A DNA stretch of 64,000 nt, from NCBI GenBank assembly GCA_035512435.1, contig DATKDX010000047.1, positions 4,674 through 68,673 on the forward strand. The letters are read 5' to 3'. The position numbers and the translations under genes were made by a program. The notes under the pieces are model-generated. The model worked only from the letters and a program-made list of their open reading frames with translations. It did no database searches and was not told the DNA's origin. The stretch is from Dehalococcoidia bacterium. Lineage in GTDB: Bacteria; Chloroflexota; Dehalococcoidia; SM23-28-2; RBG-16-64-32. Position 1 is the stretch's first letter; the number at the start of each line of letters is the position of its first letter. Of the stretch, positions 20,440 through 24,484 are shown one piece after another.

Positions 20440-21224
20440 TATTCCGGCAGCCCCAGTTCGTCCGTCAGCCGCCGGATTTCGTCCTTGCGGTCCGGAAGCG
20501 GCGCCGGCGCCGTGATCATCTTCGCCGCCTTCAGCTTCTCCACCACCTCCGGGTCGCGCTTGAAGGGCGTGCCATACTCGCCCTCGAAATACAGCTCCTC
20601 AAAGTCAGGCCTCGGTCGCTGTCCTCCGGCCTCCCACGACTCCGCCGGGTACCCCACCAGCATCACCCACATCGAAACCCAGTCGTCCGGCACCCCGAAC
20701 ACCTGCTTCGTCAGCACCGGGTTCGGCGTGTTCAGGCACGCACCCAAGCCCTCGTCGAACGCGGCCAGTAGCGCGTTCTGCGCCGCCCCGCCCGCGTCCG
20801 CGAACGCCGCTGGCACATACCCTTCGAGGTTCTTCGTCATCGGCTCCAGGATCTGCGGGTATACGAAGTCGTCCACGAACTTGTGGCTCCACCCGTGGGC
20901 CGGCGCCAGCGCGCCCACGTCTACCAGCTCTTTGAGCCGCGACCCCTTAATACGGTTAACGACCCCCAGGTCCACGAAAAAGTAGATGTGCACCGGCGCC
21001 AGGTCCAGCGTCAGAGCCGCCACCGGCGTCTTCAGCTGGTTCAGCTTCTCCGCCGGAATCTTATCCCGCTCCACCACGATTGCCCTCAGCCAGTGCGCGT
21101 TCACCGCGCACGAAGCAAGGCGTGCCGTTTCGAGGATCGTCTGTATTTTCTCCCGCTCCACCGGCCGGTCCGGGTCGAAAAAGCGAATCGACCGCCTTCT
21201 GCCAACGACTTCCTTGAACTCCAT
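20439..21224 (-). CDS. Nitroreductase-family flavoprotein
   Basis: N-terminal RRSIRFF motif and overall nitroreductase-like pattern. Confidence 0.7.
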   Translation of the reverse strand: MEFKEVVGRRRSIRFFDPDRPVEREKIQTILETARLASCAVNAHWLRAIVVERDKIPAEKLNQLKTPVAALTLDLAPVHIYFFVDLGVVNRIKGSRLKELVDVGALAPAHGWSHKFVDDFVYPQILEPMTKNLEGYVPAAFADAGGAAQNALLAAFDEGLGACLNTPNPVLTKQVFGVPDDWVSMWVMLVGYPAESWEAGGQRPRPDFEELYFEGEYGTPFKRDPEVVEKLKAAKMITAPAPLPDRKDEIRRLTDELGLPE

Positions 21225-21380
21225 GGGGCCTCCTTCTCGGCGTGCGTGCTCTCTAACGAGATTCTGACCAGACTATACGCCACCAGCGCATCTGGATTGC
21301 TACTCTTTATTAGGGCAATAATATACTTGACTCAGTAGACTAGGTGCGGTATTGTATCTGTGGAGATAGGAGATACCGCC

Positions 21381-22328
21381 ATGAAAACACCGTCCACTCT
21401 CATCGAAGCCATCCGCTACCTGAGCGATCCCGACGTATGTTTGGAGTTCGTCGCGGCACTCCGCTGGCCTGACGGCAAGGCAATTTGCCCTGGTTGCGGC
21501 AGCGAAGACGTGCGGTTTATCTCCACGCGGCGACTGTGGGAATGCAAGACCAAGCACCCCAAGCGCCAGTTCTCCGTCAAGGTCGGCACTATCTTTGAGG
21601 ACTCGCCCATCGGCCTCGATAAGTGGCTCGCCGCCATCTGGATGATTGCCAACGCTAAGAACGGTGTCAGTTCCTACGAACTCCACCGCGCCATCGGCGT
21701 TACTCAGAAAACCGCTTGGTTCATGCTTCACCGCATCCGGCTCGCCATGCAGTCTGACACCTTTGACAGACTCAATGGCACCGTTGAAGTCGATGAGACA
21801 TTCATCGGCGGCGCTGCCCGCTTCATGCACAAGAGCCGCAGGGAGCGCAAGATCAAGGGTACCGGCGGCATGGGTAAGACCGCCGTCATGGGCCTTTTGG
21901 AGCGACACGGCCCCGATGGTCACTCCCGCGTCCGCGCCAAGATTGTGCGCGGCACCCGCCGTGGTGACCTCGTTCCCGAAATCCGGCAGGCCGTGGACAA
22001 AGACGCCGAAGTCATCACCGACAACTACCGCTCCTACTTCCACGTCCGCGATGAGTTCAAGCACCACGTCATCGACCACGCCGAGAAGTACGTCGATGGT
22101 CAGGTTCACACCAACGGCATCGAGAACTTTTGGAGCCTCTTGAAGCGGGCCATTAAGGGTACCTACGTCGCCGTTGAGCCGTTCCACTTGTTCCGCTACA
22201 TTGACGAAGAAGTGCTGCGCTTCAACACCCGCTAAGGCTCCCGACGGCACCCGCTTCGCCTACGTTGCTAGCGGCATCGTCGGTAAGCGACTGACCTACG
22301 CCGAGTTGATTGGCCGTGCTACGACGCC
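21381..22328 (+). pseudogene. IS1595-family transposase (Zn-ribbon + ISXO2-like DDE domain), interrupted by a +1 frameshift near 22232
   Basis: N-terminus CPGCGSEDVRF...WECKTKH (zinc ribbon), then DDE-type core ending ...EPFHLFRYIDEEVLRFNTR with a stop at 22233-22235. The conserved transposase C-terminus KAPDGTRFAYVASGIVGKRLTYAELIGRATTPA continues in the +1 frame to 22328; removing one t in cgcTaag restores one ORF. RBS ggagatagga upstream of the ATG at 21381. Confidence 0.7.
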
Positions 22329-22464
22329 AGCGTAAGAAAGGCAGGCTCCCGCATGGAGAAAGACCGTCAAGAACCAAAGACGAAACCCAAGGCCGCCTTC
22401 CGGAAGTTTGAGGCGCTCGCAAAGAAGATCGTGCGCGTTCCCAAGGACCAGGCGAGAGACAGCG

Positions 22465-22725
22465 ATGCAAGGCGAACTCCTCAACGGAGTCCTTAAGTCG
22501 CTGGCGTTCTATGCCGCGTTGGGCCTGATCGCGCTGGGAGTCTGGTATTTCTATGGGCGCAACGTTAGCGATGAGAGTACAGCGGTTGCACCGACCAATA
22601 GACCGTTCGTGTGCGAGGAGCGCATGCCGGCCATCGTCTGCGAACACATCGATGACAATGTCTGTGTAGACGCCTACATCACCCACGGAATCCGAGGAGA
22701 CGACCTGGAGTTCTTCTGTCGCTAG
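22465..22725 (+). CDS. Possible small membrane protein inside the IS element
   Basis: ORF MQGELLNGVLKSLAFYAALGLIALGVWYFYG...; no homology evidence. Confidence 0.25.
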   Translation: MQGELLNGVLKSLAFYAALGLIALGVWYFYGRNVSDESTAVAPTNRPFVCEERMPAIVCEHIDDNVCVDAYITHGIRGDDLEFFCR

Positions 22726-22739
22726 CACGGATAAAATGC

Positions 22740-23606
22740 TCATCCTAAGTCAAGCCCGGCCTCACGATGTAGGGCAACGGTGTTGTCAATCACACCTTGT
22801 AGCTCCTCACCATAGAAGTACCGCACACTGACGTTCTTGCGGCCCCCCAACTGATCGTCCCACCCGCCAGCGGTGATAGGCGCCTGGTTTCCAACAGTAA
22901 TTCGGCTGGTTACCTTGCGCATCCTCACAGCGAGCAGATCGGCCGCCTGAAGCGGGGGATACTTTTCTTTGTCAGCGTCAAGCGTGATTGTGCCGAGGCG
23001 ACCATGGATGTCGTCTTGTTCCTTGGCCCACTCGAACATCTCCAGAGCGCGGGACTTAAACTGCAACTGGCGATCAAACACAAACGCGATTTGCTCACCT
23101 TCGGGATATGGGCCTTCGATAGTGGACTCAATATCCGTTAAGACGCAATCAAAGAAGAATTTGAAGCAAAAGTAGAATGGATGCTGCGCATAAGCCTTCA
23201 GCCAGTCAGGGGTGAGCCGGTTATAGTCCTGAACGTTCACGTATGCGCCTATTCCAAGGATGGTGTTGTCACGAGCTATGGGGATCAGGTCTTGTATGAA
23301 CCTCTCGCGCTTCTTACCCGACCACTTGTAGTAGATCCAAGTGGGATCGTCGGTGCGATGGCTGGCATTGAAGTCGGCGTAATGAAAAACCTTGACGCCA
23401 TACGCCTTTAGCTTTGCCTGCCACTCTCGCTCGTAGGTGTCCCACTTATCTTTCCAGCCCAGCCACCCGGCGACACCTACAACGTCCGAGCCAGGTTGCG
23501 TGCCCGTCTTATCATGGCTCCCTGACTCATCTACGTAGCAGACTAGACTCACTATGAACCTCTCACGAATGATGTCGGCAAGCCTCATCGGGCACCGCCT
23601 GACCAA
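22740..23606 (-). CDS. DUF3800-family protein (passenger gene of the IS element)
   Basis: N-terminal ...VCYVDESGSHDK (the DESG motif characteristic of DUF3800) and C-terminal PLQAADLLAV. Lies between the transposase and the right IR, inside the lower-GC interior. Confidence 0.55.
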   Translation of the reverse strand: MVRRCPMRLADIIRERFIVSLVCYVDESGSHDKTGTQPGSDVVGVAGWLGWKDKWDTYEREWQAKLKAYGVKVFHYADFNASHRTDDPTWIYYKWSGKKRERFIQDLIPIARDNTILGIGAYVNVQDYNRLTPDWLKAYAQHPFYFCFKFFFDCVLTDIESTIEGPYPEGEQIAFVFDRQLQFKSRALEMFEWAKEQDDIHGRLGTITLDADKEKYPPLQAADLLAVRMRKVTSRITVGNQAPITAGGWDDQLGGRKNVSVRYFYGEELQGVIDNTVALHREAGLDLG

Positions 23607-23872
23607 TCATCCCTTGACCCACTTACTGAGTCAAGTATATTGTCACCTTTATTAGGATAGCGAGCGCTGGAAAGTCAACGCGCAATAATAGAAACCTAAT
23701 TCGGTATTACTTGTTGCAGAATGACTTGACTTAATTCAAACTTCGTCCTAAACTAGACCTCAACCTGAAACCCCGCAAGTTAAGGTCCGGAGAAGGAACC
23801 GTTAAGGAGCCGTCAAGGGACCCGGGTTTCAGAGGCGAACCGTCGTGCTAGAGCCCAAAAGGGGAGGGGTAC

Positions 23873-24484
23873 ATGCCACGGTCTACCTCTGTAGACATCG
23901 CGAACGAACCGCAACCGGCGGAACAGCTCATCGCTAGAGCGGCAAGGGGAGACCGCGAAGCGTTCGGGCAACTTTACGAGGAGCACGCACTCCGAGTCTT
24001 CCGCCACGCCTATTTCCTCACCCAGGACCCGTTCCTCGCTGAGGACCTCACCGCGCAAACATTCCTCAAAGCGCTCGAGGCTATCCCGCGCTATGAGGAC
24101 CGCGGCGTTCCGTTCATCGCCTGGTTGCTCCGGATCACCGGCAACCTCACCATCAACTACAAGAAGGCGCAGAAGAACGGATACCACGCCCAGCTGCCCG
24201 ACTCGCTCATCGACGACGACCGCTTCACCTCACCGGAGAAGACCGCCGAGGCCAATAGCGACGGCGAACGCCTATGGCGATTCGTCCAGAAGCTTCCGTT
24301 TGAGCAGCGCCAGGTCATCGTCATGCGTTTCATAGACGACCTCCCATACACGGAAGTCGCCGATGTGCTCGGCAAGAGTGTCGGCGCCGTCCGCGTCATC
24401 CAGTTCCGCGCGCTCGCCTCTCTCCGGCGCATGGTTCAGAACGCCGACCGCGAGCTGGCATACGCAGTCGCCCAGGCAAGCTAG
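23873..24484 (+). CDS. ECF-type RNA polymerase sigma-70 factor
   Basis: Region 2 (LIARAARGDREAFGQLYEEHALRVFRHAYFLTQDPFLAEDLTAQTFLKALEAIPRYEDRGVPFIAWLLRITGN) and region 4 (LPFEQRQVIVMRFIDDLPYTEVADVLGKSVGAVRVIQFRALASLR). RBS gggaggggt upstream. Confidence 0.85.
   Translation: MPRSTSVDIANEPQPAEQLIARAARGDREAFGQLYEEHALRVFRHAYFLTQDPFLAEDLTAQTFLKALEAIPRYEDRGVPFIAWLLRITGNLTINYKKAQKNGYHAQLPDSLIDDDRFTSPEKTAEANSDGERLWRFVQKLPFEQRQVIVMRFIDDLPYTEVADVLGKSVGAVRVIQFRALASLRRMVQNADRELAYAVAQAS

Follow-up and report, generated by a model that had tools for sequence, protein, structure and literature searches.

An IS1595-family transporter insertion sequence with a damaged transposase gene and a DUF3800 cargo in a Dehalococcoidia genome

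Transporter insertion sequences (ISs) of the IS1595 family were reportedly set out by Siguier, Gagnevin and Chandler in 2009. IS1595-family transporter ISs with passenger genes have been described since that year (PMC3129680, PMC8101967). Here we analyse such an element in a stretch of 64,000 nucleotides from a Dehalococcoidia bacterium (contig DATKDX010000047.1, positions 4,674 to 68,673; "the window" below). The element is a transporter IS of the IS1595 family with a damaged transposase gene, a structural assignment that is secure, and its passenger gene encodes a DUF3800 protein.

The DUF3800 domain has an RNase H2-like fold, is found in the associated protein of type VII retrons and has been defined by a DE and a QxxD motif (PMC7736814). 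It has been linked to Cas12a2/a3 (PMC10910872, PMC13594972) and found in a Cas13-associated operon (bioRxiv 10.64898/2026.08.25.746378). DUF3800 genes are also tightly linked with structured non-coding RNAs, of which 11 motifs are unexplained (PMC5737381). Our literature search found no paper connecting DUF3800 to IS1595.

The explanation that we favour, with a probability of about 0.8, is that the cargo of this transporter IS is an exchangeable conflict or defence gene and not a transposition factor. Unrelated genes of defence type replace DUF3800 on near-identical element cores, and it is this replacement that argues for the conflict or defence character of the DUF3800 gene.

Element boundaries and the split transposase gene

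The main parts of the element are the following (positions in the window, strand, description and basis).

21314..23647, +: whole element, an IS1595-family transporter IS (termini, 8-bp duplication, sister elements)
21306..21313, no strand: left copy of the target-site duplication, 8 bp, TTTATTAG (register set by sister elements)
21314..21337, +: left inverted repeat (IRL), 24 nt, GGCAATAATATACTTGACTCAGTA, with a perfect 18-nt core at 21320-21337 (terminus alignment)
21381..22235, +: transposase, first frame, 284 aa followed by TAA; Zn-ribbon C36, C39, C55; DDE core D138, D214, E248, K255, E276, R280 (open reading frame (ORF), domain searches)
22233..22233, +: extra T, giving a frameshift and the TAA stop (alignment with L085, L086, L087, L089, L090 and L170)
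22234..22335, +: C-terminal 33 codons of the transposase in the +1 frame (KAPDGTRF...GRATTPA, stop) (tail conserved in full-length relatives)
22740..23588, -: DUF3800 cargo, 282 aa from the ATG at 23588; the longest ORF starts at the TTG at 23606 and has 288 aa (Pfam, motifs, predicted fold)
23624..23647, -: right inverted repeat (IRR), 24 nt, GGTGACAATATACTTGACTCAGTA on the minus strand, as reverse complement (terminus alignment)
23648..23655, no strand: right copy of the target-site duplication, 8 bp, TTTATTAG (direct reading of the sequence)

The element measures 2,334 bp (21314-23647) and is present as a single copy in the window. The intergenic region in which it lies is AT-rich and separates two divergent genes, one for a nitroreductase and one for a sigma-70-family (ECF-like) sigma factor. 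The sequence-only reading, an earlier account of this DNA made from its letters, had described perfect 18-bp terminal inverted repeats. A perfect 18-nt core, AATATACTTGACTCAGTA, is indeed found at 21320-21337 and 23624-23641, two occurrences in the window where 0.01 would be expected by chance; however, the left copy had been placed 1 nt off, and the core is not the true terminus, since the repeats extend outwards to 24 nt, start with GG and match at 21 of 24 positions. The direct repeat that the same account gave as 'ttattagg' is likewise real, but its register was set 1 nt too far to the right and the correct duplication is TTTATTAG. The uninterrupted direct repeat is 10 nt long (CTTTATTAGG), because the flanking bases by chance equal the terminal G/C of the repeats; the GG termini and the 8-bp register were adopted because they are common to 62 sister elements, described below. 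At 6 of its 8 positions the duplication agrees with the palindromic consensus CTAATTAG that emerges from the targets of these 62 elements. The GC content of the element is 56.3%, compared with 62-63% in the 5-kb flanks, so that the interior is AT-richer than its surroundings, as had been remarked.

When the extra base is removed, the transposase has 317 aa. Pfam detects in it Zn_ribbon_IS1595 (PF12760, E 3.3e-11) and DDE_Tnp_IS1595 (PF12762, E 2.5e-38, with 153 of 153 profile positions covered), and the score with the NCBIfam IS1595 model NF033547 is 189 bits, the cut-off being 75. At least 32 of 33 relatives share D138, D214, K255, E276 and R280, and all share the zinc-ribbon cysteines C36, C39 and C55; E248, present in this copy, is not invariant among the 33. 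Domain searches, the alignment of relatives and the 62 sister elements thus agree with the IS1595-family call and with the intact termini and duplication of the sequence-only reading.

That reading also had the transposase split by one extra base near 22232. The split and the continuation of the C-terminus in the +1 frame are as described, while the exact base is the T at 22233. The lesion reads CGC-T-AAG, where six relatives (L085, L086, L087, L089, L090 and L170; related loci are cited by such numbers) read CGC-AAG in one frame. Full-length relatives encode the transposase in a single ORF of 317-320 aa that includes the conserved tail, and the nearest of them are 74-75% identical to the present one. 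In protein records the transposase and the DUF3800 protein come from a 210,668-bp contig of a Dehalococcoidia metagenome-assembled genome, the source of the window, in which the former is annotated as a 284-aa IS1595 transposase (P0001). A single unsplit transposase ORF, the rule in the IS1595 family, is thus not found in this copy, which is split at 22233; this is a defect of the copy and has no bearing on the family assignment. All the catalytic signature residues lie upstream of the lesion and are kept in the truncated protein, which loses the conserved 33-residue tail. Because the inserted T removes these last 33 conserved residues, the copy is probably non-autonomous, though every catalytic signature residue is retained.

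No other copy of this exact element, intact or not, turned up in protein-record searches, and exact-protein look-ups, which returned only Logan contigs of the same sequencing run, found no empty site. The Logan contigs (run SRR8556377; L171, L172) have identical junctions and end inside the transposase gene at ~21626 and 22363. In that assembly the flanks and the cargo assemble cleanly and the breaks flank the frameshift; several transposase variants or copies in the sample may be the cause. Two other elements, both low-copy and DUF3800-carrying, also have interrupted transposase genes, L004 (3805-4763, split into 186 + 133 aa) and L001 (3443-4141), at positions that differ from that of the window lesion. 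These interruptions are independent decay events, or errors.

The frameshift could instead be an artefact of assembly or consensus, or a minority variant, in which case the real transposase would be an intact protein of 317 aa and the IS would be active. We consider this unlikely, yet it deserves to be taken seriously. The source is a metagenome-assembled genome; the 284-aa protein is recorded only by NCBI, whereas the DUF3800 protein and an 86-aa protein of the element are also found in Logan; the contig ends on either side of the lesion suggest assembly ambiguity within the transposase gene; and the termini and target duplication are pristine. On the other hand, the extra T lies outside a homopolymer (CCCGC-T-AAGG), a context in which indels seldom enter a short-read consensus, a collection of 5.8 billion clusters contains this transposase in no intact version, and the relatives L004 and L001 have been broken independently.

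The DUF3800 gene and its exchangeable slot

The opposite-strand, 288-aa DUF3800-like gene of the sequence-only reading holds up, at 288 aa from the TTG and 282 aa from the ATG. PF12686 matches residues 23-226 with 28.4 bits (cut-off 21; E 3.1e-6), and the source annotation calls the product a DUF3800 domain-containing protein. The DE motif is formed by D20-E21 within YVDESG and the QxxD motif by Q214 and D217 within PLQAADLL; in 24 homologues Q214 and D217 never vary, and D20 and E21 hardly do. An AlphaFold2 model built with the 24 homologues has a pLDDT of 87.8 and a pTM of 0.87. The top PDB matches of this model in Foldseek are the RNase HII structures 1eke, 2dfe and 1io2, all archaeal (E 3.5e-4, probability 1.0, TM-score 0.4-0.5), and the top viral match is an annotated phage DUF3800 protein (E 1.3e-7, TM-score 0.60-0.68). 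From the modelled fold and the motifs, the cargo protein is predicted to be an RNase HII-like nuclease. A PDB sequence search with the DUF3800 profile returned nothing meaningful, a plasmid collection contained no DUF3800 match, and NCBIfam and PADLOC-DB v2 gave no match for the three non-transposase ORFs submitted (DUF3800, a 47-aa ORF and a 105-aa ORF). None of the DUF3800-associated RNAs in Rfam (DUF3800-I to XI, drum, skipping-rope) matched window positions 20800-24200 at E values up to 1, and none was found at the gathering score in 17 related loci.

This copy does not stand alone in carrying DUF3800. Homologues at 60%, 42% and 40% identity are each convergent with a neighbouring IS1595 transposase gene, and at the locus of one of them, L003, the element is complete, ending in the same terminus and flanked by a duplication of 8 bp. 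In a scan of species-representative genomes, 34 of 80 loci encoding DUF3800 relatives have an IS1595 transposase no more than 2 kb away; the hosts of these 34 include Acidobacteriota, Nitrospira, Verrucomicrobiota and several Proteobacteria, among others. The repeat core ATATACTTGAC marks the ends of the DUF3800-carrying elements, in which both convergent and co-directional gene orders occur (the latter in L020, L028, L040 and L043).

Pooling all loci gave 62 distinct complete sister elements with perfect 8-bp duplications. They are 1,972-4,322 bp long and share the terminus GGyAAyAATATACTTGAC (family consensus GGyAAyAATATACTTGACt), so that the repeat and duplication pattern, whose absence elsewhere would have spoken against the IS, recurs abundantly. 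No cargo-less member, which would be a minimal IS of ~1.1 kb, was found among the 62, although the search was able to pick up a minimal IS of 1,036 bp from a distant subgroup. DUF3800 is encoded by 14 of the 48 complete elements anchored on a transposase (13 found by profile and 1 more by Pfam) and is the commonest occupant of an exchangeable slot in this large clade.

The other cargoes are diverse proteins of 190-400 aa, with Pfam matches in about 12 of 40. These matches comprise an N6_N4_Mtase+Mrr_cat fusion, RelA_SpoT, the SocA_Panacea antitoxin domain, NYN, Bro-N, DUF5343, and proteases of the SDH/ClpP-like and trypsin-like kinds; PADLOC adds matches to the candidates PDC-S33 and PDC-S45 and to methyltransferase models. 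Two single-gene cargoes are of clear defence or toxin character: a 396-aa protein in L104 (4208-5398, +), in which an N6_N4 DNA methylase is fused to an Mrr-type endonuclease, and a 372-aa RelA/SpoT-domain protein in L157 (5423-6541, -).

The second commonest cargo is an unannotated family of ~260-290 aa (L087 5095-5871, -; L088, L090, L124, L127, L160; L170 849-1064, -), for which Pfam, PADLOC and PDB sequence searches gave no match. A conserved R-N-x-x-x-H near its C-terminus, seen by eye, recalls HEPN RNases and makes such an affiliation a tentative lead. The L087 element adjoins a type I CRISPR-Cas locus (Cas3, Cas5d).

The cargo is exchanged as a module. Elements whose transposases are 95% (L137/L140), 83% (L086/L090) and 78% (L124/L133) identical carry different cargoes, and the DNA homology between sister elements covers the IRL, the transposase gene and a small ORF (~1.1 kb in all), then only the last 25-30 nt. 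L170 has the core of the window element, including an 85-aa ORF, and a different cargo. The GC content at third codon positions is 0.78 in the transposase gene and 0.58 in the DUF3800 gene; this gap and a weak correlation of divergence between the two genes agree with cargo exchange. Strict co-inheritance of transposase and DUF3800 was considered and dropped in favour of exchange on account of the weak co-phylogeny (Mantel r = 0.18).

Extended targets are in part common to unrelated loci: AGGTATCGAAG is found with L087 and L089, in opposite orientations, and is close to the AGGAATCGAAG of L085, while CTTGTTAG / CTAACAAG occur in L137, L140 and L122. Such shared targets suggest a marked target-site selectivity of the clade. 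Two different clade elements lie head-to-tail or side by side in L040 (4641-9780), L094 (123-5828) and L024 (5883-11819). In the tandems of L040 and L094 the same 8-bp target sequence is present on all sides, which implies that one site has been used more than once and gives cargoes a way to re-assort.

Besides the transposase and the DUF3800 protein, correctly recognised from the letters, the element encodes two more proteins that had been overlooked, between these genes, making four genes in total. These ORFs and the promoter-like sites of the repeats are as follows.

22353..22496, +: small basic ORF, 47 aa, beginning MEKDRQEPKTKPKAAFRKFEALAKKIVRVPK (homologues in the same position, profile in 42 loci)
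22466..22725, +: 86-aa ORF (P0146) with a transmembrane-like N-terminus and four conserved Cys (homologue P0147 in L170)
21327..21355, +: inward promoter-like site with its -35 in the IRL, TTGACT-17-TATTGT, upstream of the transposase gene (consensus match)
23606..23634, -: inward promoter-like site with its -35 in the IRR, TTGACT-17-GATGAT, ending 17 nt before the DUF3800 ATG (consensus match)
23614..23641, +: outward promoter-like site across the IRR, TTGACC-16-TATATT, 10/12 matches (consensus match)

The 47-aa ORF starts 18 nt past the transposase stop and has homologues at the same position in L001, L085-L090 and L170. A seed profile finds matches in 42 loci (motif …KPK..F.KFE.LAKKIVRVPK…); in a few elements (L003, L142, L144) the ORF is on the cargo strand. 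It matched no known family, and a search against a representative library gave one marginal match, the query being too short to inform. The 47-aa product may be an unrecognised co-factor or regulator of IS1595 elements. The 86-aa ORF overlaps the 3' end of the 47-aa ORF, has no family match in Pfam, NCBIfam or PADLOC, and is 68% identical to P0147, an 85-aa ORF in the same position in the sister element L170. It travels with the core and not with DUF3800, because L170 has this homologue with a non-DUF3800 cargo.

The junction of the transposase gene and the small ORF contains a 27-nt block, CTACGACGCCAGCGTAAGAARGGCAGG (22318-22345; columns 33-60 of alignment A3), which spans the transposase stop and the ribosome-binding site of the small ORF. 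Six elements with an identity of ~75% elsewhere do not differ within this block, even at synonymous sites. No covariation was found that would point to an RNA structure at the block; translational coupling, or a binding site, may account for its invariance. The one match of the Rfam search, a sub-threshold match to CRISPR-DR47, falls on the block (22332-22366, E 0.14) and was set aside as probably due to chance.

The most conserved part of the repeats is the inward-facing TTGAC box. A -10-like hexamer with at least 4 matches to TATAAT lies 16-18 nt from TTGAC in 60% of 120 termini, compared with ~10% at control offsets. From these consensus matches we infer that the IRL would drive the transposase operon and the IRR the cargo, and an IRR that serves as cargo promoter would explain why the cargo usually points inward from the IRR.

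The outward site across the IRR faces the sigma-70-family sigma-factor gene that begins at 23873, and the insertion may affect how this gene is expressed. A short way upstream of it the host intergenic DNA contains an imperfect tandem 22-nt direct repeat, GTTAAGGTCCGGAGAAGGAACC / GTTAAGGAGCCGTCAAGGGACC, at 23779-23822.

Function of the cargo and alternative explanations

The element is built of two modules. It inserted between the nitroreductase and sigma-factor genes, duplicating TTTATTAG. The core module comprises the IRL with its putative inward promoter, the Zn-ribbon/DDE transposase gene, the 47-aa ORF and, here, the 86-aa membrane ORF; the cargo module reaches from the end of the core to the IRR and here holds one convergent DUF3800 gene, apparently driven by the mirror-image promoter of the IRR. 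Across the clade the cargo module is swapped wholesale while the core and the 25-30 nt of the IRR are kept, DUF3800 alternating in the slot with restriction, methylase, toxin-antitoxin, RNase and protease genes. The shuffling could proceed by recombination within the transposase gene, between elements in the same palindromic target. Both repeats would act as promoters, and binding of the transposase could regulate them.

DUF3800 itself would be an RNase H-like conflict nuclease, serving in anti-phage or anti-mobile-element defence or in an addiction that retains the element, with no role in transposition. This functional part is put forward conditionally, because we are not aware of any DUF3800 protein with a known function, whether biochemical or phenotypic, and most of the alternative cargoes are unannotated.

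Several observations weigh against our explanation. The DUF3800 protein of the window matches no PADLOC model. About 28 of the 40 non-DUF3800 cargo ORFs lack a Pfam match, so that the label 'defence-type' rests on a minority of cases. The frameshift lacks independent confirmation, with the Logan contigs of the same run breaking on both sides of it. The promoter calls are consensus matches, and promoters in this phylum have been little characterised. Sampling was biased for both sets of loci: the DUF3800 set was drawn with one peptide pattern (PLQAADLLA), and the transposase set is the best 80 of at least 590 metagenome matches. Finally, transposase and DUF3800 divergence are only weakly correlated (18 of 2,000 permutations reach the Mantel r given above, and the Spearman coefficient is near 0), which fits exchange, yet does not demonstrate long-term co-inheritance.

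A further-reaching form of the explanation can be put forward tentatively, and we would sooner bet against it than for it. The cross-phylum IS1595 clade might be a dedicated minimal vehicle for single-gene conflict modules, with an obligatory cargo that is expressed from the IRR promoter and swapped via the shared palindromic target; DUF3800 would be the cargo of choice, and much of one of its subfamilies would reside on these elements. If this were true, DUF3800 would serve defence or addiction as an IS-borne nuclease on its own, with no need of a reverse transcriptase (RT), Cas or structured-RNA partner.

Against this independence of a partner, DUF3800 could act with an RNA supplied by the overlapping convergent transcripts of the element and so tune transposase expression. 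The tight linkage of DUF3800 to structured non-coding RNAs elsewhere (PMC5737381) would favour such a role, as would the convergence of the cargo with the transposase operon, with no terminator-like site between them, and the abutting or overlapping ORFs of sister elements. However, neither the element nor the 17 related loci contain a DUF3800, drum or skipping-rope motif of Rfam, non-nuclease cargoes occupy the same convergent position, and L020, L028, L040 and L043 are co-directional; we therefore regard an RNA partner of this kind as improbable.

The DUF3800 gene could also be a neutral hitch-hiker with no function for host or element, as the rapid turnover of cargoes and the lack of a known phenotype might suggest. 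Yet the ORF is intact with all its family-invariant residues, DUF3800 ORFs are intact in at least 14 divergent elements, down to ~25% identity, and no member of the clade has lost its cargo. There is little likelihood, in our judgement, that a gene so preserved is without function.

A role in transposition itself is still harder to defend. DUF3800 would then be an accessory nuclease needed by the IS for second-strand cleavage or for processing of an intermediate, as TnsA is for Tn7; its RNase H-like fold is the fold class of DDE transposases and of many DNA-processing nucleases, it very often adjoins IS1595 transposases, and all elements of the clade contain DNA in excess of the transposase gene. 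But near-identical transposases and termini (the 95%, 83% and 78% pairs) carry unrelated proteins and keep perfect duplications, and the methylases, RelA/SpoT enzyme and proteases among the cargoes cannot replace a nuclease. A single transposase gene is, moreover, general in the IS1595 family (PMC8101967). We consider an accessory role very improbable, and return to the exchangeable conflict or defence gene as the better account of the cargo.

As for the split transposase ORF, an alternative to a simple defect is offered by recoding, and regulation of the transposase in this way does occur in some IS families. Programmed +1 frameshifting past the stop at 22233-22235, which would yield full-length transposase at a regulated low level and would restore the conserved C-terminus if the shift took place exactly there, was rejected as scarcely credible on the sequence context and the relatives' continuous frames: the CGC-UAA-G context gives the P-site tRNA no re-pairing, six relatives have a continuous frame at this point, and IS1595-family elements have been described with a single transposase ORF (PMC8101967).

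Comparison with known systems

For the window itself the analysis yields an ordinary annotation, that of a single transporter IS in decay. The pattern of the clade (obligatory cargo, promoter-bearing repeat, palindromic target, small ORF) is of more interest than the element. DUF3800 is a widespread family, and as the commonest cargo of a compact and easily reconstituted two-module transposon it can be studied here, as a stand-alone protein, in a simple natural context. For the biology of IS1595 elements, the small ORF, the palindromic target and the repeats with their promoter-like sites are concrete features that lend themselves to testing. The cargoes suggest that the movement of defence-type genes between bacteria of soil and sediment is due to small ISs as well as to large Tn7-like or integrative elements.

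Among the groups of the IS1595 family with passenger genes, the ISNwi1 group may be the closest, judged by the terminus GGyAAyAATAT and the D-D-E-K and E-x3-R residues as set beside the general description of that group. The description gives ends like ggnnatTAT and, besides a DDEK signature, an E followed four residues later by an R. The present element has the termini GGCAATAATAT and GGTGACAATAT and belongs to a clade with the consensus GGyAAyAATATAC; D138, D214 and E248 are present, K255 stands seven residues after E248, and R280 four residues after E276.

With the described IS1595 transporter ISs the element shares the Zn-ribbon and DDE_Tnp_IS1595 transposase, the 8-bp duplication, short repeats that start with GG and passenger genes unrelated to transposition (PMC8101967, PMC3129680). 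The zinc ribbon, found in all groups of the family except IS1016, is present here. By contrast, the nearest named or plasmid-borne transposases are less than 40% identical to this one; in the plasmid collection the nearest are annotated 'IS1595 family transposase', and no named IS could be assigned. The clade also differs from the described transporter ISs in having no cargo-less member among those surveyed, an additional small ORF, the palindromic target CTAATTAG and the mirror-image promoter-like sites.

The DUF3800 proteins of retrons, Cas12a2/a3 and the Cas13 CASK system have in common with the present one the PF12686 domain, the N-terminal DE, the predicted RNase HII-like fold and a mobile or conflict context (PMC7736814, PMC10910872, PMC13594972). 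The window protein is, in contrast, a stand-alone protein of 282 aa with no tetratricopeptide repeat (TPR), RT, cas genes or recognisable partner RNA, and its partner is a DDE transposase. It keeps the Q of the QxxD motif, which is missing from the retron-associated clade (PMC7736814). A type VII retron is not indicated, as there is no RT domain among the ORFs of the element and no retron RNA in the Rfam search; nor is a CRISPR-associated TPR-DUF3800 protein, as Pfam finds DUF3800 only and the flanking genes encode a nitroreductase and a sigma factor.

Larger transposons such as the Tn7-like elements combine a conserved transposition module with a variable cargo of defence genes (restriction, toxin, nuclease). 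Compared with these, the vehicle described here is small, at ~2-4 kb, has a single transposase and usually one cargo gene, and the cargo is apparently expressed from the terminal repeat.

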